The notes beneath the pieces are model-generated. The model saw only the letters and a list, made by a program, of their open reading frames with translations. It ran no database searches and was not told the DNA's origin. Below are positions 1,986 to 14,962 of a DNA stretch of 24,000 bases, piece after piece. The first letter of the stretch is position 1. Each line of letters starts with the position of its first letter. Made by a program: the position numbers and the translations under genes. The DNA comes from Sphingobacterium cavernae. Lineage in GTDB: Bacteria; Bacteroidota; Bacteroidia; Sphingobacteriales; Sphingobacteriaceae. The DNA lies in contig NZ_VIQM01000026.1 in the NCBI RefSeq assembly GCF_008520265.1, forward strand, positions 7,902 through 31,901. The letters are read 5' to 3'.

Positions 1986-2057
1986 GGCCCGTTCGTCTAG
2001 GGGTTAGGACGCCAGATTTTCATTCTGGAAACAGGGGTTCGATTCCCCTACGGGCTA
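1986..2057 (+). tRNA. tRNA-Glu, anticodon UUC
   Basis: Cloverleaf folded by hand. Acceptor stem is GGCCCGT/ACGGGCT (G1-U72 wobble plus 6 Watson-Crick pairs). D stem is GTCT/GGAC. Anticodon stem is CCAGA/TCTGG with loop TTTTCAT, giving anticodon TTC. T arm is AGGGG-TTCGATT-CCCCT. Discriminator is A and CCA is not encoded. Total length is 72 nt. Confidence 0.93.
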
Positions 2058-2058
2058 C
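2042..2058 (+). repeat. Left copy of a 17-bp direct repeat (attL-like), inside the tRNA-Glu 3' end
   Basis: ATTCCCCTACGGGCTAC at 2042-2058 is identical to 7877-7893. Confidence 0.85.
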
Positions 2059-2129: not shown

Positions 2130-2650
2130 CTATAACTTACTATCTTTAGGTCAGCAACAAAATCCTGTCGTGAATATAATCCATTGACTTTCAATCCTCG
2201 TTTTGCAAATTCATTAGAGGATTGAATTAAGAGATCCAATCGGTCATCAATAAAATAAAACTGGGTATTATCTGCTTTTTCTGATGGTAGTCAGTCAAAT
2301 ACTTGACATTGTAATATGCCAATGCTATTTTTCCCGCTCCCAGTGTATACCAGATAATGCCTTTCCTTCTACCTTCGTCTAGATTTGCAGTTATTGCCAT
2401 ATTAGCAAACACTTGCGGATAACGCAAATATGTTTTTAGTACTTTCCTCACGCACATAAGCTATATCATATCGTAGAATAAAACCTAAACCTTCTCTACT
2501 GAACAACGACGTAAATATCTTATGCGTAGGACTGTGAGGTTTCTTATTCATCTTGTTTTCTGGACTATGCTTTATAACTAACAGATTGTTATCCTTCAGC
2601 AAAAAGTTTTCCTGATCTTCTAAAGCTACATCAGGATTGTTCGTTGTATT
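2130..2650 (-). pseudogene. Decayed fragment of an SF2 helicase / restriction-enzyme R-subunit-like gene
   Basis: Three short reverse-strand reading frames join only through frameshifts and stops: ...LRYDIAYVREE / VLKTYLRYPQVFANMAITANLDEGRRKGIIWYTLGAGKIALAYY...FILLMTDWIS* / QSSNEFAKRGLKV... The patterns LRYPQ...G(I/L)IWxTxGxGK...(D)R..L resemble the motif Q / Walker A region of HsdR/Res-type helicases. The Walker A is degenerate (GAGKI) and the fragment covers only ~170 codons. Confidence 0.45.
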
Positions 2651-2795: not shown

Positions 2796-3656
2796 TTAGA
2801 AGATTTGATTAAACAATATTTCTAGATCTGTTTTTACGGTGTCAAAAGTCGGTAATTTCTTAGGTGAAATCTGATGCCCGAGGCTAGTTTTCCAAGCTTT
2901 TTTCACAGTACTCTCACTCTTAGCATTAAGAAATTGTTCTACACCACAATATTCGAGTCCTTTAAATTCCATTTTTTTCAAAAAGGCCGTTTTTATTTCA
3001 GACCAATCAATATCTCCTCCGTATTTGGATAGACACCATATATCATAGTAATCCCGAGGAGCGGTGTAAGAACGTTGAATTAATGCACTCAGCTTTTCAG
3101 ACAATACCTCACGTATGTCATAACATGAGATAGCCGATACAGCAGAGGAAAGCTCGTCCGAATAATCATGATAGACTGGCTTGCCAATAGGTCTAAATAG
3201 CATTTGCTCATAGAGAATGATTTCTATTTTAATAGAAGTCGTCCACCTAGCAGGAGTAGGGGAAGCTTGGTCTTTAGCATGGTCCGCTCCCCAAAACTTT
3301 ACAATCGCCGCATATCCCGTCAACATATCTTTATGACGTAGCTCAGTTAACTTATCTAAATGAAGAGGCATCTCTGTCCTTTGCTGAACAGAAGTTATTA
3401 TTTCTTGCATCAACTGCTTAGCCAACTTAAACTCCGTATTTATAGAAGTAAAATCCAAGTCCTCTGAAAAACGGTAATCTGGGAAATAACACTTGCGCAA
3501 GCAAGTTCCTCCCTTAAAAATTAAAGAATCTCGACAAATCTTGTTTGAAAATATAGCATCTATAAAATGACCTAATACCCAATCTTTATCAATTGTACTT
3601 CTAGAAACGTCGTGTTCCAGCTCTTTTTTATCGACTTCCTTTTTCAGTATCATCAA
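2796..3656 (-). CDS. abiEii: AbiEii/AbiGii-family nucleotidyltransferase toxin (DUF1814 type)
   Basis: This is a 286-aa ORF. The hallmark motif FKGGTCLRKCYFPDYRFSEDLDFT (aa 47-70) matches the pol-beta-like NTase signature GG(T/S)xL...R.SxDLDF of AbiEii. Its start overlaps the upstream gene's stop (ATGATG/TGA at 3651-3656). Confidence 0.85.
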   Translation of the reverse strand: MMILKKEVDKKELEHDVSRSTIDKDWVLGHFIDAIFSNKICRDSLIFKGGTCLRKCYFPDYRFSEDLDFTSINTEFKLAKQLMQEIITSVQQRTEMPLHLDKLTELRHKDMLTGYAAIVKFWGADHAKDQASPTPARWTTSIKIEIILYEQMLFRPIGKPVYHDYSDELSSAVSAISCYDIREVLSEKLSALIQRSYTAPRDYYDIWCLSKYGGDIDWSEIKTAFLKKMEFKGLEYCGVEQFLNAKSESTVKKAWKTSLGHQISPKKLPTFDTVKTDLEILFNQIF

Positions 3657-4453
3657 TATTGTTTATTAGAGATATCTAACAATTCTCCACGACTGATATT
3701 CAATCGCAACCGCCATTCCGCGACAAACTCACCCTCTTCCAACCCCTGGGGATCAAACAAATTATATTTGTTATTTACTTGGCTTTTTGCATAGTCAATA
3801 AAAGTTTCTAAACCTTCTATACGGAGCAATTCAATTAGATATCCTAATCGCTTAGTGACAGCTATATTGTTCAACTGCTGACTATATTTAATTAATTTAT
3901 GAGCCTCCATTTCCGCTTGGCCAACCGCTCGGATCAACTCTGCGTATCCTCCCGAATATTGAGGCAGGTCAAAACAATCAACAATCGTTTTTTCCACATC
4001 AGTAATAGCATATTTAAGACTTCCATACCCATTGTAAGTAATACCTGCTTTTTTATACGAAGCAATTCTTACAAATTTATACGACGTGCCTAATATAGTT
4101 TTATCCAGTTTTTTGTGGGTTGTCTGAATAAAAACCGTATTCGAAAACTGTTCTGTCAATCCATGCAGATTCAATGCAGACCAGTACGCGACAGCACTGT
4201 TTTCCGTAACGAAGGTGCCTATCACGTATTCGTCCCTGAAATTTTGTCGACAAAACTTTCCTTTTTCTATCCGAGAGAGGAGTTCCTTATCAACCAGATT
4301 TTCCAATATCTCACTTAAGTTATCAAATGTTTGATCCAAAAGCTGTTCTATTTCAGTGAATTTAAAAATCTGTATTTCATAATCATCCAACAACTTTAAG
4401 AATTCAAGCTGTGGTTTAGTTAAGTGTTCCGATATATAAACGCTGTCTGCCAT
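3653..4453 (-). CDS. abiEi: AbiEi-family antitoxin / transcriptional regulator (COG5340-like)
   Basis: This 266-aa ORF lies immediately upstream of abiEii and is translationally coupled to it. AYWSALNLHGLTEQ resembles the conserved S-AL-LHGLT-Q block of AbiEi proteins. The size and operon position are canonical. Confidence 0.75.
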   Translation of the reverse strand: MADSVYISEHLTKPQLEFLKLLDDYEIQIFKFTEIEQLLDQTFDNLSEILENLVDKELLSRIEKGKFCRQNFRDEYVIGTFVTENSAVAYWSALNLHGLTEQFSNTVFIQTTHKKLDKTILGTSYKFVRIASYKKAGITYNGYGSLKYAITDVEKTIVDCFDLPQYSGGYAELIRAVGQAEMEAHKLIKYSQQLNNIAVTKRLGYLIELLRIEGLETFIDYAKSQVNNKYNLFDPQGLEEGEFVAEWRLRLNISRGELLDISNKQY

Positions 4454-4456
4454 ATT

Positions 4457-4511
4457 ACCAATTGAGGAACGATAAGACCCAATTATTAGGTCTTATCGTT
4501 CCGCGATTGGT
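4457..4511. promoter_or_regulatory. Extended inverted repeat abutting the abiEi start codon (candidate AbiEi operator / 5'-UTR hairpin)
   Basis: GGAACGATAAGACC (4466-4479) and GGTCTTATCGTTCC (4489-4502) form a perfect 14-bp inverted repeat around a 9-nt spacer. A second 6-bp pair, ACCAAT (4457-4462) / ATTGGT (4506-4511), flanks it. The repeat lies 4 nt from the abiEi ATG (4453), within the 196-bp divergent intergenic region. Confidence 0.5.
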
Positions 4512-4649
4512 AAAGATATGAAACGAAATAGATAAAAAACAAGCAAAGAATTGATATCCTAAATCAAATTGGAACATCATTAATTTCTACAAAAGTTAAT
4601 AACAATGGCACTCAATTTTATATCTTAACCCAGAATTGCATAATGCGTA

Positions 4650-7616
4650 ATGAATTACACACCAAATGACATAAAACTTATTCTTAGGCTCTTTAAAGGT
4701 CGCGAAGATGTGTTTGCTACTCGTTGGGAAAAGGCTGGTAAATCTGCCTATATGCCCGCCTATAGTTACGACCCGTATCATTATAGGTTGCATAAAGCAA
4801 ATGGAGGTACATTTAAAAGCTATCAACACAAGACATACTTGCCATTATCGGAGATAGAGATTGATAAACACTTAAGAGGAGATCAGCAGATTGGCATTTA
4901 TCCATTGCTACAGGATAATACTTCTTGGTTCATCGTAGCTGACTTTGACAAATCAGACTGGCAAGAACAAGCTGCAAAGTATTTGGAAGCTTGCACTAAT
5001 AAAAATATTCCCGCTTATCTTGAACGTTCTCGTTCAGGCAATGGAGCACATGTGTGGATATTCTTTGATCAGCCATATCCCGCCATTAAAAGTCGTAGGA
5101 TATTCCTTCGTATCTTAGAAAATTGTGGAGCTTTCTCTATGTTTGATAAGAGTTCTAGTTTTGACAGAATGTTTCCAAGCCAAGATTATCATTCAGGTGA
5201 AGGACTAGGGAATTTAATCGCACTACCTTTATATTTACCAGCGCTAATAAAAGGTAATAGTTGCTTTATCGATTCTGAAACATTAGAAGCATTTCCTGAC
5301 CAAGTCACCTACCTGAAAAACATCAACAAGGTCAATTTGGAATTACTGGACCGACTAGATAATGAAATTGATAGCGACGAGAATAACCCTAGCTCTTATA
5401 TTGATAAAAAACTTAAAATAACTCTAAATAACACAATTCGGTTAAATCGTTTCTCCATCCCATTTACTCTGATCAATTTTCTAAAAGAAAACCTGAACTT
5501 TGCAAATTCTGCTTTTATCATAAAGAAAAAAGCCGGTAGAAGCACGTTTGAAACACCTAGGTTCTATAATTTAATAGAAGAGAAGAAAAATGAACTTCAC
5601 ATCCCTAGAGGATTTATTGGGAGACTTTTGAGGTTCTGTAGAGATATAAAATTAGAGCATGAATTTGTGGATGAAAGAAAAGCACTTCCTGTTATCCCTT
5701 TTGTTTTTCAAGCGACATTAAGAAATCATCAAAATAACACAGTAGAGGCTGTTGCAAAAAAAGACTTTGGAATAATTGTCGCGCCACCTGGTGCAGGAAA
5801 AACCGTTATTGGATTAAAAATTATTGCAGACAAACAACAGCCAGCTCTTATCCTTGTACATCGTAAGCAACTTTTAGATCAATGGATAGAACGTATTGAG
5901 GGATTTTTAGTCATTCCTAAAAAAGACATAGGTATCATTGGTAAAGGAAAAGCTAAAATTGGCAATCATATTACAATAGCTACTATCCAGAGTCTCCCTA
6001 AATATATCGACACTTTACATGATAAGTTTGGAACAATTCTCATCGATGAATGTCATCACGTTCCTGCAGAATCATACCGTAATACCATTAATGCTCTACA
6101 AAGCAAGTATTGTTATGGACTTACAGCAACACCATTCAGGAAGCATAACGATGATAAGCTAATTTTTACATATCTCGGTGACATTATAACCGAAATCAAA
6201 TCTGAAGAAATTGAAGACTATAAAAAAGCAACAATAATTATTAGAAACACAACGCTTAATGTACCATACAATTCGAAAACAGACAATTTTGAGGTTCTTT
6301 CTCAAATACTAATCCATGATACAGCCAGAAACAATATCATAAGGGATGATGTAGCTAAGGAACTAAATCAAGGAAAGAAAGCTGTAATAATTACGGAGCG
6401 AAAAGAACATATCGAAACATTAAACCTGCTTCTAAAATCTAATTATGAAACCATAACACTCAGTGGCGACGATACAGACAGTAATAAGAAAGCAAAGTGG
6501 AAAACACTTTCAGAAGGGAATTTTCAAGTGTTAATTACTACAGGACAATACTTCGGTGAAGGCTCCGACATTAAGCATATTAACACACTTTTTTTAGCTT
6601 ATCCATTTTCATTTAAAGGGAAATTAATACAGTACATCGGCAGGGTACAAAGGTCCGAAATCAACCCAACGATATACGACTATCGGGACTTGCAGATTGA
6701 CTATCTTAATAAACAGTTTTTGAAACGAAACACATATTATCGTCAAATAGATAAACAAGTGACATTGTTTGATGAACCAACCTTAGATTACCAACCCAAT
6801 ACAGCAGACCTATTTATATTAGAAAAATCAGTCAAAATACCAATTGACAATCTTTCTTTTCATTATGGTCATGTGACATTTACCTATAAAGTTGATGAGA
6901 TGCACAGTATGTTAGAGTTTCAGATTGAAAACAAAGAAATGCGACCTGAATTTGATGTATTAAAAGCATATTTCAGCAAAAACTTAAAGTCAAAAAATAT
7001 AACTGTCGAAATTAAAGCAGAATTTGAGTACGGAAAACTAGTAGCACAAATAGCTACTTCTAAAGATATCGAACATATCAATAAAGAGATAGTAGAAGGG
7101 GTAAAATTCCAATTTCTCAATAAAGGTTTATTAGGGAGAAGCCCTTTTCAAAAGAAAGATATACTAACCGCAGAGCAATTACAGGAAGGACATAATATAT
7201 ATAAAAATGCAAAGGATATGATATCCGATATTCTTAAGCAACGACAATACAAACATTCCGATCAAATTCGTTTTTTAGCCGACCAGCATAGAACTGATAT
7301 TATGAAAATTCGCTTTGTGCTTAGTCCGTTTGCTTTTGTATTCCTTTTTTCAGGGAATAGACAATATCACATCATTCTAGAAACACTAGATACAGAAGAA
7401 GCAACATACATCTGGCATACAGATAAAAACAGATCTTCATTAATAGAAGCAATCGAAATCATTAACAAAGACCTTCAGGTTATTCGAGAAAAAGGCAGAC
7501 AAGTGTTTTTAGATGAATACATTCCTTCAAATTTTAGTCGAATACTACATGACTATACAGAACCAGAGAAAGGTTTCATATTATGGAAGAGCATGTTGGA
7601 AGAAGTCATTCACTGA
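4650..7616 (+). CDS. Fusion protein: N-terminal archaeo-eukaryotic primase (PrimPol-like) domain + SF2 DEAH-box helicase + uncharacterised C-terminal region
   Basis: This is a 988-aa ORF. AEP motifs are hhhADFD (aa 94-100), SGNGAHVWIFF (129-139) and FDRMFPSQD...GLGNLIALPL (171-194). Helicase motifs are LRNHQ (357-361), APPGAGKT (378-385), DECHH (466-470), TATP (492-495), VLITTGQYFGEGSDI (627-641) and QYIGRVQR (661-668). I recognise no motifs in aa ~700-988. Confidence 0.85.
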   Translation: MNYTPNDIKLILRLFKGREDVFATRWEKAGKSAYMPAYSYDPYHYRLHKANGGTFKSYQHKTYLPLSEIEIDKHLRGDQQIGIYPLLQDNTSWFIVADFDKSDWQEQAAKYLEACTNKNIPAYLERSRSGNGAHVWIFFDQPYPAIKSRRIFLRILENCGAFSMFDKSSSFDRMFPSQDYHSGEGLGNLIALPLYLPALIKGNSCFIDSETLEAFPDQVTYLKNINKVNLELLDRLDNEIDSDENNPSSYIDKKLKITLNNTIRLNRFSIPFTLINFLKENLNFANSAFIIKKKAGRSTFETPRFYNLIEEKKNELHIPRGFIGRLLRFCRDIKLEHEFVDERKALPVIPFVFQATLRNHQNNTVEAVAKKDFGIIVAPPGAGKTVIGLKIIADKQQPALILVHRKQLLDQWIERIEGFLVIPKKDIGIIGKGKAKIGNHITIATIQSLPKYIDTLHDKFGTILIDECHHVPAESYRNTINALQSKYCYGLTATPFRKHNDDKLIFTYLGDIITEIKSEEIEDYKKATIIIRNTTLNVPYNSKTDNFEVLSQILIHDTARNNIIRDDVAKELNQGKKAVIITERKEHIETLNLLLKSNYETITLSGDDTDSNKKAKWKTLSEGNFQVLITTGQYFGEGSDIKHINTLFLAYPFSFKGKLIQYIGRVQRSEINPTIYDYRDLQIDYLNKQFLKRNTYYRQIDKQVTLFDEPTLDYQPNTADLFILEKSVKIPIDNLSFHYGHVTFTYKVDEMHSMLEFQIENKEMRPEFDVLKAYFSKNLKSKNITVEIKAEFEYGKLVAQIATSKDIEHINKEIVEGVKFQFLNKGLLGRSPFQKKDILTAEQLQEGHNIYKNAKDMISDILKQRQYKHSDQIRFLADQHRTDIMKIRFVLSPFAFVFLFSGNRQYHIILETLDTEEATYIWHTDKNRSSLIEAIEIINKDLQVIREKGRQVFLDEYIPSNFSRILHDYTEPEKGFILWKSMLEEVIH
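4692..5294 (+). other. AEP / PrimPol-like domain of the 988-aa protein
   Basis: The three classical AEP motifs (DxD, sGxGxH, hD...) appear in the correct order and spacing, at nt 4938-4949, 5034-5057 and 5160-5177. Confidence 0.7.
5712..6665 (+). other. SF2 (DEAH, Res/XPB-like) helicase core of the 988-aa protein
   Basis: Walker A is at nt 5781-5804, DECH at 6045-6056 and motif VI at 6630-6653. This gives two RecA-like lobes. Confidence 0.85.
6747..7613 (+). other. C-terminal ~290-aa region of unknown function
   Basis: aa 700-988 are Lys/Glu/Ile-rich with a hydrophobic block, RFVLSPFAFVFLFSGNRQYHIILETLD. I found no nuclease, NTPase or Zn-finger signature by eye. Confidence 0.4.
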
Positions 7617-7876: not shown

Positions 7877-7893
7877 ATTCCCCTACGGGCTAC
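7877..7893 (+). repeat. Right copy of the 17-bp direct repeat (attR-like; displaced tRNA-Glu 3' end)
   Basis: ATTCCCCTACGGGCTAC is identical to 2042-2058. Flanking bases also partly match (GGT..ATT). Confidence 0.85.
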
Positions 7894-7894
7894 G

Positions 7895-7926
7895 AAAAGC
7901 GACTACAAAAGAGTCGCTTTTTTATT
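7895..7926. terminator. Bidirectional intrinsic terminator (probable original tRNA-Glu terminator; also ends the convergent hydrolase gene)
   Basis: AAAAGCGACT (7895-7904) pairs with AGTCGCTTTT (7912-7921) around a 7-nt loop. The T-run continues on the + strand, and an A-run/T-run is present on the - strand. Confidence 0.7.
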
Positions 7927-13146: not shown

Positions 13147-13330
13147 AACTACCCATTTGCTAAAGACAAATGGGCTTCGGGCTTCACAGACTTGTGCTTT
13201 GTTGCCAAAGTCTTATTTGAGTCTCCGCCCGTGTAATCGCCAGTTCCTGACGATATTATTTTTAATCCTTCTTTCAGAATGTTTTTTGCAGCGTTTAAAT
13301 CACGGTCTAAAACGTGTCCATTTTTGCAAG
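13125..13330 (-). ncRNA. Predicted TnpB omega-RNA (reRNA) scaffold plus flanking guide; extent approximate
   Basis: By analogy with characterised TnpB systems, the guide RNA derives from the tnpB 3' end plus the right end and reads into the flank. The right-end hairpin is present. No covariance model was run. Confidence 0.4.
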
Positions 13331-14342
13331 TCCATTCTCTTATTGAAAGATTTAAGTCTTGATTTATCCAACCGCACTCACAGCAGGTTTTACTTGATGG
13401 ATAGAAGCGATTGATTTTTACAATCTGTTTATCGTTCCAATCAGCCTTGTATTCAAGCAACCTAACGAAAGTTCCCCAACTTGCATCAGAAATATGTTTT
13501 GAAAGTTTATGGTTTTTCACCATACCTTTCACATTCAAATCTTCTAATGCAATTATATCGTAGTTAGAAACTAATTGGTGCGATACCTTATGTAAGTTAT
13601 CCATTCGTGAGTTGGTTATCTTCTGGTGAAGTCTTGCTGTTTTTCGTCTTTGTCTTTCAAACGAATTACTGCCTTTTGTCTTACGAGAAAGATGTTTTTG
13701 TGCTTTCGCTAATTCTTTTTCATATTGTTTTGTGTATTTGTTGTTCTTGAATTTGACACCATCAGAAGTAATAGCAAAGTCTTTTAAACCTAAATCTATT
13801 CCACAAAAAGCACCAGTCTTTTCTTTTACTTGATATTCTTCTTCTGATAGTATTGATACAAAATATTTTCCTGTTGGTGTTTTACTCAAAGTACATTTAC
13901 TAATTTCGCCTTTAACTTCACGATGAACATTAACTTTAATACCTTCTTTGAATTTTGGTGCAAAAAATCTACCACCTTCAAGTTTTGCGAACTGTGGAAC
14001 TGTGAATGAGTTTTTCTTTTTCCTTGACTTAAATCGTGGAAACTTAGCATTACCTCTAAAAAAATTCACGTAAGCAGTATCTAAACATCTTAAAACAAAT
14101 TGTAATGATTGACTATTCACTTCTTTCAGCCAAGCAGTTTCCTCTTTCTTTTTTAGTGCAGTTAAGGTAGCTGCCTGTTTATAGTAATTATCAGACTTTT
14201 TATTTGCTTGATATTGCTCTTTCTTTTCATTTAAAAAGTAGTTGTAAACGTAACGGATACATCCAAAATGCTTATCCAACAACACTTTTTGCTCTTGTGT
14301 TGGCTGCAATTCAAATTGATATGTCCGAAAAATTATCTTCAT
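13149..14342 (-). CDS. tnpB: RNA-guided endonuclease TnpB (IS200/IS605 OrfB family)
   Basis: The ORF is 13149-14372. I prefer the ATG at 14342 (MKIIFRTYQFELQPT is a typical OrfB N-terminus). RuvC-I is GIDLGLKDFA and RuvC-II is IALEDLNVKGM. The Zn finger is CCECGW...CKNGH, and RuvC-III is DRDLNAAKNI. Confidence 0.9.
   Translation of the reverse strand: MKIIFRTYQFELQPTQEQKVLLDKHFGCIRYVYNYFLNEKKEQYQANKKSDNYYKQAATLTALKKKEETAWLKEVNSQSLQFVLRCLDTAYVNFFRGNAKFPRFKSRKKKNSFTVPQFAKLEGGRFFAPKFKEGIKVNVHREVKGEISKCTLSKTPTGKYFVSILSEEEYQVKEKTGAFCGIDLGLKDFAITSDGVKFKNNKYTKQYEKELAKAQKHLSRKTKGSNSFERQRRKTARLHQKITNSRMDNLHKVSHQLVSNYDIIALEDLNVKGMVKNHKLSKHISDASWGTFVRLLEYKADWNDKQIVKINRFYPSSKTCCECGWINQDLNLSIREWTCKNGHVLDRDLNAAKNILKEGLKIISSGTGDYTGGDSNKTLATKHKSVKPEAHLSLANG
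13152..13174 (-). repeat. IS right-end (tnpB-proximal) subterminal hairpin
   Basis: CCCATTTG-CTAAAGA-CAAATGGG on the + strand forms a perfect 8-bp stem. It overlaps the last tnpB codons (stop at 13149-13151). Confidence 0.75.
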
Positions 14343-14458
14343 TCTACTATTAAATAGTTTTATTTTATGCAAAAAAACATTTTATTTATGCAGTCCGATG
14401 CGTTTTTTGTAAATATCTCCATTTTCATTGAGAAACATTCACAAAAAACTTCGCTAAT

Positions 14459-14962
14459 ATGTCTAAAAAATGTAATTACATCAGCACAAATCGTTCAAAA
14501 CACTACTTAAAGTGTCATTTAATCTTCGTTTGCAAGTATCGTAAAAAGTTACTTGTAGGTCAGTTAAAAGATGATATGCGTTCTCTCTTAAACATTACTT
14601 CTAATTCAGATTTTCAAATTGAAGTGTTTGAATCTGATTTAGAACACATCCATTTTCTTATTCGTTATATCCCCCGTGTTTCAATTACTTCTATTGTTCG
14701 CAAGTTAAAACAAGAATCTACTTATTACATTTCCCGTTCACCACACAGGTCATTCTTATTTAAACATTTTTGGAAAGAACATACTTTCTGGTATGATGGT
14801 TATTTTGTTTGTTCAATAGGTGAAGCATCTCCTGATACTATTCGTGAGTATATTCTCAATCAGGGTGAGTCGCTTACATCCAACAGGCTAAAGACCTGTG
14901 GGTTTTACGCTCCGTTTTATAAAATTTTTACAAATGATGCTTTTATTGAAGCATATCCATAA
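14459..14962 (+). CDS. tnpA: IS200/IS605 family Y1 (HUH) transposase TnpA
   Basis: This is a 167-aa ORF. The HUH motif is HIHFLI and the catalytic Tyr context is IREYILNQ. The C-terminal ~30 codons read through the left-end hairpin, so the tail may be non-native. Confidence 0.85.
   Translation: MSKKCNYISTNRSKHYLKCHLIFVCKYRKKLLVGQLKDDMRSLLNITSNSDFQIEVFESDLEHIHFLIRYIPRVSITSIVRKLKQESTYYISRSPHRSFLFKHFWKEHTFWYDGYFVCSIGEASPDTIREYILNQGESLTSNRLKTCGFYAPFYKIFTNDAFIEAYP
14880..14902 (-). repeat. IS left-end (tnpA-proximal) subterminal hairpin
   Basis: CCAACAGG-CTAAAGA-CCTGTGGG pairs at 7 of 8 positions. It has the same 7-nt loop and the same orientation as the 13152-13174 hairpin. Confidence 0.7.

Follow-up and report, generated by a model that had tools for sequence, protein, structure and literature searches.

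What does an enzyme do that joins a DNA-synthesising domain to a helicase-like motor and lies in a small genomic islet beside an abortive-infection gene pair? This question is raised by a gene of Sphingobacterium cavernae, found in a 24,000-nucleotide stretch of contig NZ_VIQM01000026.1 (assembly GCF_008520265.1, positions 7,902 to 31,901 of the forward strand; hereafter the window, within which all positions are given). The gene (4650..7616, + strand) encodes a protein of 988 amino acids (aa) composed of an AEP primase-polymerase (PrimPol) domain, a superfamily 2 (SF2) ATPase and a C-terminal domain (CTD), and belongs to the family of the Escherichia coli protein IEE (IS-excision enhancer). 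An earlier reading of the sequence (the original prediction) had taken it for a candidate uncharacterised defence or conflict effector. By comparing the protein with IEE, and by examining the domains and genomic surroundings of its relatives, we come to consider it fairly likely that the window protein is an IEE-type polymerase-ATPase acting on DNA ends or intermediates of mobile elements.

The open reading frame (ORF) is intact, with an ATG start and a stop after 988 aa, and the ORF call and motif positions bear out the motifs originally described: ADFD at residues 97-100 (D98/D100), SGNGAH at 129-134, FDRMFP at 171-176 and GNLIALPL at 187-194 in the AEP domain, and APPGAGKT at 378-385 (K384), DECHH at 466-470, TATP at 492-495 and QYIGRVQR at 661-668 in the helicase. 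Since more than 7,900 homologues are found at E<=1e-5 and Ka/Ks lies between 0.06 and 0.22 across every domain, the gene is not a chance ORF; its closest relative is a protein of Sphingobacterium tabacisoli with 96% identity (locus L005). The proposed composition, an AEP domain with an SF2 helicase, is confirmed by Pfam (AEP-TOTE, ResIII, Helicase_C). The AEP catalytic domain (aa 7-233; 4668..5348, +) scores 273 bits on AEP-TOTE (PF22548; cutoff 27), and its nearest solved structures are those of the CRISPR-associated primase-polymerase (CAPP) of Marinitoga piezophila (7NQD and related entries, E=4e-13, aa 6-242). The TOTE label given in the original prediction was correct, being both the Pfam name and the NCBI name of an 87%-identical Sphingobacterium protein. 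The SF2 ATPase core (aa 356-669; 5715..6656, +) comprises ResIII (356-497) and Helicase_C (570-669), with K384 in motif I, DECH 466-469 as motif II and R665/R668 in motif VI. All helicase-type Pfam matches are to SF2 families (ResIII, DEAD, SWI2_SNF2), and the motor's nearest solved structures are archaeal XPBII (6p4f, E=7.5e-25), XPB (Rad25) and T4 UvsW (3e-10), which resemble the motor core only and lack a polymerase fusion; an NCBIfam XPB match is far under its cutoff. Pfam, NCBIfam and PDB comparison agree in this respect with the original view of the partner as a Res/XPB-like SF2 motor and not an SF3 helicase. The tail (~705-988), noted at the outset as some 290 aa without a recognised motif, has no Pfam match even at E<=10 and no PDB sequence match in a profile search, and Pfam finds no PriCT or Zn-binding domain in the 988-aa protein. 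Matches in PADLOC-DB v2 are at the level of domains only ('PrimPol, CAS-associated' at aa 5-268, 222 bits; mREase_IV and PbeA on helicase parts), and no named defence system there matches the protein from end to end.

The fusion of an AEP domain and a helicase, regarded by the original prediction as uncharacterised, had already been catalogued: CAPP-Helicase is the commonest non-CRISPR CAPP architecture, typically located in mobile or transposable elements (Zabrady 2021, PMC8211822). Nor does the statement hold that the family has no experimentally defined mechanism, as the collinear homologue IEE has published genetics and biochemistry (PMC9943667). Residues 47-777 of IEE align collinearly with aa 4-704 of the window protein (32% identity, E=7e-117), IEE itself reaches 329 bits with the AEP-TOTE model of Pfam and likewise has ResIII and Helicase_C. 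The two proteins share the domain order (AEP-TOTE, linker, SF2 ResIII/Helicase_C), each is the cargo of a chromosomally inserted integrative element, and their catalytic and ATPase residues are all identical. When 71 full-length relatives are aligned with MAFFT, D142/D144/D216 of IEE map to D98/D100/D172 (metal ligands), H178 to H134 (motif B), Y128 to Y84 (steric gate), and the ATPase residues K451 and R735 to K384 and R665, and the mapped residues are invariant in 70-71 of the 71. The proteins differ at their ends: IEE has 786 aa, begins with ~44 additional residues and stops directly after the helicase, whereas the window protein continues for ~284 C-terminal residues, none of which are found in IEE, and falls in a separate Bacteroidota clade. 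Gammaproteobacterial relatives (783-821 aa, one copy truncated) show 42-48% identity to IEE and stop just past the helicase; Bacteroidota relatives (~990-1000 aa) carry the CTD, and their identity is 52-96% to the window protein and 31-34% to IEE.

Genetic studies have shown that IEE promotes the transposase-dependent excision of insertion sequence (IS) element IS629 and of other elements of the IS3, IS1 and IS30 families, and that it induces deletions; its homologues have been reported across many phyla, Bacteroides included (PMC9943667; bioRxiv 10.1101/2023.06.07.543989). In vitro, IEE synthesises DNA as an error-prone, Mn2+-dependent polymerase; the SF2 domain hydrolyses ATP in a DNA-dependent manner, an activity lost in the K451A mutant, and unwinding is undetectable. 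IEE carries out microhomology-mediated end joining (MMEJ) of 3' overhangs that share 4 nt of homology or more, a reaction that requires both domains and does not require ATP hydrolysis (PMC9943667). As an alternative, Chandler and colleagues have proposed for IEE strand switching in copy-out replication (bioRxiv 10.1101/2023.06.07.543989). In the E. coli Sakai element SpLE1 (locus L085, 30772-41313), iee lies ~7 kb from the SpLE1 integrase, and just upstream of it are genes for an AlpA regulator, a DUF3987 protein and a small protein with sub-threshold similarity to replication proteins, such that SpLE1 appears to have a replication-type module of its own apart from IEE.

What sets the window protein and its Bacteroidota relatives apart is the CTD (aa 718-988; 6801..7613, +), which is divided into two subdomains. 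Judged from coding sequences, it is under purifying selection as is the rest of the protein (Ka/Ks 0.12 against the relative at L005 and 0.08 against that at locus L001; the helicase has 0.06 and the AEP domain 0.08-0.13). An AlphaFold (AF2) model of the CTD has a mean pLDDT of 78.7, with mostly more than 90 in the structured parts and a disordered linker between the two subdomains, the second of which contains an invariant polar cluster (H869, H880, K886, R888, E911, D914, E916, E917, Y920, W922, H923, R950, H967, D968 and Y969). Foldseek comparison with the PDB and BFVD yielded nothing better than E ~6e-3 and TM ~0.1; matches to sliding-clamp, PUR and OB folds were weak and not significant, and neither Pfam nor Foldseek found a match to TBP. 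Of the structural comparison proposed in the original prediction, the modelling succeeded and the fold assignment did not.

A profile of the CTD retrieves 749 proteins among 1.84 billion (1.84e9) cluster representatives, most of which are not AEP-helicases. The majority are stand-alone proteins of ~395-450 aa, annotated as 'hypothetical proteins' and lacking Pfam domains, in which a beta-rich N-terminal domain ('X') precedes the CTD; the one that was modelled is likewise without a fold match. X and CTD also occur together in some AEP-helicases (L049, P0249), and in three further proteins the CTD (in P0336 and P0360 also X; in P0386 the CTD) follows N-terminal tandem helix-turn-helix-like repeats that by eye resemble IF2_N. 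The surroundings of the stand-alone genes vary: some have a restriction, PLD or MoxR-vWA island around them, or Mrr or an AAA_21 ATPase as a neighbour, and others show nothing remarkable. Among the ~405-420-aa X-CTD proteins of Bacteroidota and Verrucomicrobia, which have no Pfam domain (P0391-P0509; loci L086, L088 and L090-L093), the gene is located between a methyltransferase/ResIII-AIG2/PLD block and a bpMoxR-vWA pair in L090 and L091, and adjoins Mrr in L092. Two further arrangements were considered and rejected: a split two-gene system, consisting of a stand-alone X-CTD protein and a short AEP-helicase, as five stand-alone loci have no adjacent AEP-helicase; and a separate architecture of ~410-430-aa Helicase_C-CTD proteins, which proved to be truncated copies. 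Taken at the level of sequence, the CTD is an undescribed mobile domain family that is separately maintained by selection, and its most likely contribution is recognition of a substrate or partner, or regulation.

To see in what company the family travels, we surveyed 80 species-level loci with 10-kb flanks, clustering the ORFs and scanning 149 immediate neighbours. There is no obligate partner, as neighbour clusters reach at most 14 of the 80 loci. AbiE-type pairs occur within 10 kb in 29 of the 80, nearly always directly adjacent, in both Bacteroidota and Gammaproteobacteria; the adjoining pairs fall into four different clusters and vary in orientation. Other common neighbours are DUF4172-Fic, Schlafen-AlbA_2/HATPase_c_4, HipAB, ParDE, HicAB, YhcG, AAA_14-DUF4143 and type I restriction-modification (RM) systems. 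The PADLOC models AbiEi, AbiEii and SoFic each match 10-12 of the 149 immediate neighbours, while no PADLOC family has more than two matches among 107 distal ORFs of the same loci (at least 6.5 kb away). Integrases account for 4 of the 149 immediate neighbours, are found within five genes in 9 of the 80 loci, and have no fixed synteny. Both outcomes bear on the neighbourhood comparison suggested in the original prediction: the integrase-dominated setting of a replicase was not seen, and AbiE and SoFic were concentrated in immediate as against distal ORFs. The surroundings of individual relatives can be rich in defence genes, as at L001, where intact type I RM genes (HsdR/M/S) and AbiE stand by the homologue. 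At locus L002 (Alkalitalea saponilacus CP021904, 1532-22964), a 65%-identical homologue starts 4 bp after a Gabija pair (an OLD-TOPRIM GajA-like and a UvrD GajB-like protein); with two type IIG MmeI/Eco57I-like enzymes, a Schlafen-AlbA_2 ATPase and a PLD protein on its flanks, it is part of a dense defence island. At about 10 of ~55 Bacteroidota loci (L018, L047, L048, L056, L058; also L010, L040, L050, L053, L057) the AEP-helicase gene is split or truncated; some of these cases may be assembly errors in metagenome-assembled genomes, and otherwise frequent gene decay is indicated.

The same survey separates the gene from the systems whose name its AEP domain bears. TOTE conflict systems combine TPR, OB/CSD, TBP and Effector components (Aravind et al. 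2022, as cited in PMC12458937), and it is the effector that the AEP domain would represent, by its name in Pfam and NCBI and by its score on PF22548. No annotated ORF of the window matches TPR or CSD and no TPR/CSD cluster recurs over the 80 loci; a TBP-domain gene is likewise absent from the window and not recurrent over those loci. Among the 25 commonest Pfam families of the 149 immediate neighbours, and in the PADLOC scan of these, no TPR, CSD, TBP or Cas family recurs. The AEP gene stands alone, and a TOTE operon was rejected, these searches having found no TPR, CSD or TBP partners.

In the window, the gene lies in a 5.8-kb islet between exact 17-bp repeats. The att repeats, the AbiE matches and an hsdR remnant support the original description of this locus as a tRNA islet of defence-island character with an AbiE pair and a decayed restriction helicase. 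The integration target is a tRNA-Glu (UUC) gene at 1986..2058 (+; ARAGORN; Rfam tRNA, 63.6 bits), the 3' end of which is the direct repeat ATTCCCCTACGGGCTAC found as attL by repeat search (2042..2058, +); a second, 100% identical copy, attR (7877..7893, +), marks the right end of the islet. The islet has no integrase and is therefore regarded as a decayed element; its flanks hold housekeeping genes (purD, a hydrolase gene, miaA and others). Directly after attR, a terminator-like GC hairpin with a T-run (7894-7922) abuts the stop of a convergent dienelactone-hydrolase gene, and most likely represents the terminator that first followed tRNA-Glu and was moved away from it when the islet inserted. 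Decay is seen within the islet too: at 2135..2620 (-) is the remnant of a type I hsdR gene (ORF fragments 2227-2457 and 2402-2602; weak SWI2_SNF2/ResIII matches), which aligns at 92% with an internal stretch of the intact hsdR of S. tabacisoli (1022 aa; L005 6988-7965). Some 490 bp of the 3-kb gene are left, another internal segment of ~485 bp has been deleted, and hsdM and hsdS are wholly gone; the adjacent AbiE pair and the AEP gene are intact.

The pair consists of abiEii, a nucleotidyltransferase toxin gene (2796..3656, -; Pfam AbiEii, 123 bits), and abiEi, an antitoxin/regulator gene (3653..4453, -). The latter has a weak match to Pfam AbiEi_1, and its orthologue in L001 (86% identical) matches the PADLOC AbiEi model PDLC02267 with 312 bits (E=5.5e-94). 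In the intergenic region from which abiEi and the AEP gene diverge, 2 bp ahead of the abiEi start codon, repeat search finds a near-perfect palindrome with 29-nt arms and a 1-nt spacer (4455..4513). Its core GGAACGATAAGACC/GGTCTTATCGTTCC is kept in six Sphingobacterium loci, its arms change symmetrically (GGAACG to GTTACG together with CGTTCC to CGTAAC), and this sequence pattern suggests that it is probably an AbiEi autoregulatory operator. A scan for sigma-70 promoters gave 33 against 28 expected, the sigma-70 consensus being uninformative for a Bacteroidota genome. Elsewhere in the window, an IS200/IS605-type element (13149-14962) consists of genes for TnpB (OrfB_IS605 and Cas12f-like TNB; 13149-14372, -) and a Y1 TnpA (14459-14962, +).

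Given the homology, the intact catalytic sites, the purifying selection, the islet structure and the neighbourhood, we favour an IEE-type enzyme, for which analogy with IEE would predict polymerase, ATPase, and MMEJ or template-switching activity. In such a mechanism the AEP domain would tolerate primer and template dislocation, and the SF2 domain would act as a DNA-dependent ATPase that clamps the substrate duplex without unwinding it; together they would synapse 3' single-stranded ends via short microhomologies and then extend them, in MMEJ or by template switching. In cells the enzyme's substrates would be DNA ends or replicative intermediates that other mobile elements produce; for IEE these are transposase-generated intermediates of copy-out-paste-in IS elements, with IS excision and deletions as the outcome. 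Functional analogues would be Pol theta and bacterial LigD, which combine a polymerase with a helicase-like or accessory domain in microhomology or non-homologous end joining, a comparison drawn in PMC9943667 and PMC11724360. Pol theta differs in being an A-family polymerase and LigD in having ligase and phosphoesterase domains, and homology to the two is limited to the AEP domain of LigD. The gene would be accessory cargo of the tRNA-Glu islet, moving in islands rich in toxin-antitoxin and restriction genes, and such company fits a role in conflicts with mobile DNA. Several points weigh against this reading. Identity to IEE is only about one third, and the long form is a clade apart from the gammaproteobacterial IEE type of 785-805 aa, and therefore its substrate in vivo may differ. 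No transposase is found among the recurrent families of the 149 immediate neighbours, and the only IS of the window is of the IS200/IS605 type, for which no response to IEE has been reported. The Pfam, PDB and BFVD searches assign neither a fold nor a function to the CTD, and the activity ascribed to the window protein would follow from comparison.

The islands themselves invite other explanations. The protein could be a single-protein anti-phage or anti-plasmid effector in which the CTD senses infection and the AEP-SF2 core copies the invader or makes decoy or toxic DNA; we hold this to be possible and rather unlikely, and say the same of it together with its outcome, replication blocked directly or through abortive infection. 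It would account for the defence-island company both in the window and around relatives (type I RM with AbiE at L001; Gabija, type IIG RM and Schlafen at L002), for the AbiE pairs of four subfamilies that abut the gene in about one third of the 80 loci, and for the concentration of SoFic, AbiE and PDC matches in the directly adjoining genes as against distal ORFs. The domain name in Pfam and NCBI derives from a predicted conflict system, the broken copies in Bacteroidota resemble the turnover typical of defence genes, and AEP domains do operate in proven defence proteins, as in DRT7. In DRT6 and DRT7, however, the AEP PrimPol domain that synthesises DNA within anti-phage immunity is partnered by a reverse transcriptase and not by an SF2 ATPase, and the PADLOC DRT models do not match the window protein; nor does any PADLOC system model span it. 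The literature that we searched holds no phage phenotype for IEE, its relatives or PrimPol-SF2 fusions, and the sole tested relative shows IS excision. Neighbourhood evidence is moreover correlative: Fic, AbiE, YhcG and AAA_14-DUF4143 recur in several lineages, and shared insertion sites could explain their presence. A defence role is plausible from the neighbourhood. One tentative form of it, which we would not rate as probable, makes the long form a self-contained immune enzyme against mobile DNA with the CTD as a new sensor or targeting module: the CTD would steer an IEE-type core to replicating invader DNA (IS circles, or phage and plasmid intermediates), template switching and aberrant synthesis would abort the invader, and joint action with abutting AbiE pairs would be possible. 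If this were true, the enhancement of IS excision in E. coli would be one outward sign of an immunity mechanism that is widespread.

An island-borne enzyme of break repair or damage tolerance, rescuing chromosome or island by MMEJ, including from self-inflicted cuts by neighbouring restriction or Abi systems, seems improbable to us. IEE performs MMEJ in vitro, the related mobile-element PrimPol AgaPP raises the survival of E. coli after DNA damage and Cas9 cuts, and the genes are repeatedly positioned by type I RM and toxin systems; yet the distribution is patchy and horizontally spread with frequent pseudogenes, no conserved ligase or end-processing partner lies nearby, and for members of this family repair is an idea taken from analogy. 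We find it more doubtful still that the protein is the replication initiator or replicase of the islet or of another mobile element, like pRN1 ORF904 or the satellite Pri-Rep, even though mobile-element replicases classically combine an AEP domain with a helicase, the gene lies inside an att-bounded tRNA islet, non-CRISPR CAPP-helicases typically reside in mobile or transposable elements (PMC8211822), and short-form homologues occur on plasmids. ORF904 and D5-like replicases have a helicase of SF3, D5 or DnaB type and a PriCT or Zn-binding domain, whereas the window protein has neither, its motor being SF2 ResIII/XPB-like; IEE has ATPase but no detectable unwinding activity. The integrase, excisionase and partition synteny expected of such replicases is not seen around the family, in which integrases are as scarce and as variably placed as described above, and SpLE1 has a separate AlpA and DUF3987 module upstream of iee. 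The phage database contains no full-length relative, and the plasmid relatives are short IEE-type genes only, on replicons of 78-240 kb, where the gene is more likely cargo than initiator. Least probable by far is a CAPP aiding spacer acquisition. 'PrimPol, CAS-associated' is the top PADLOC domain match (222 bits), NCBIfam PrimPol_Msp scores 103 bits, and the AEP domain matches, and is homologous to, that of the M. piezophila CAPP structures (PDB 7NQD/7NQE/7NQF; E=4e-13); the PrimPol_Msp score is, however, far under the 200-bit cutoff, the window protein lacks a TPR or PriCT-like domain, the window has no cas gene (Cas1 and Cas2 included) and no array, and no Cas family is among the top families of the 149 immediate neighbours. 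Because there is no CRISPR-Cas neighbour, a CAPP role is effectively refuted at this locus.

The family to which the window protein belongs has been known since the original classification of AEP proteins; Pfam and NCBI both name it, and its prototype has been characterised. Against the literature that we found, three things are new: the long-form architecture with its CTD, the CTD as a domain family in its own right, and figures for how often AbiE, Fic and other toxin-antitoxin or restriction genes adjoin members of both clades with no TOTE partners alongside. IEE is, to our knowledge, the sole bacterial enzyme that actively removes IS elements, and its natural role is debated between end joining after excision and strand switching during copy-out. 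A very large Bacteroidota clade is now seen to share the catalytic core of IEE together with an extra conserved domain, which joins three literatures that had been separate (IEE, CAPP and 'TOTE' conflict systems). The CTD and its stand-alone relatives are abundant enough to merit a structure, and it becomes a testable question whether polymerase-driven end joining or template switching may serve bacteria as a general strategy against mobile elements.

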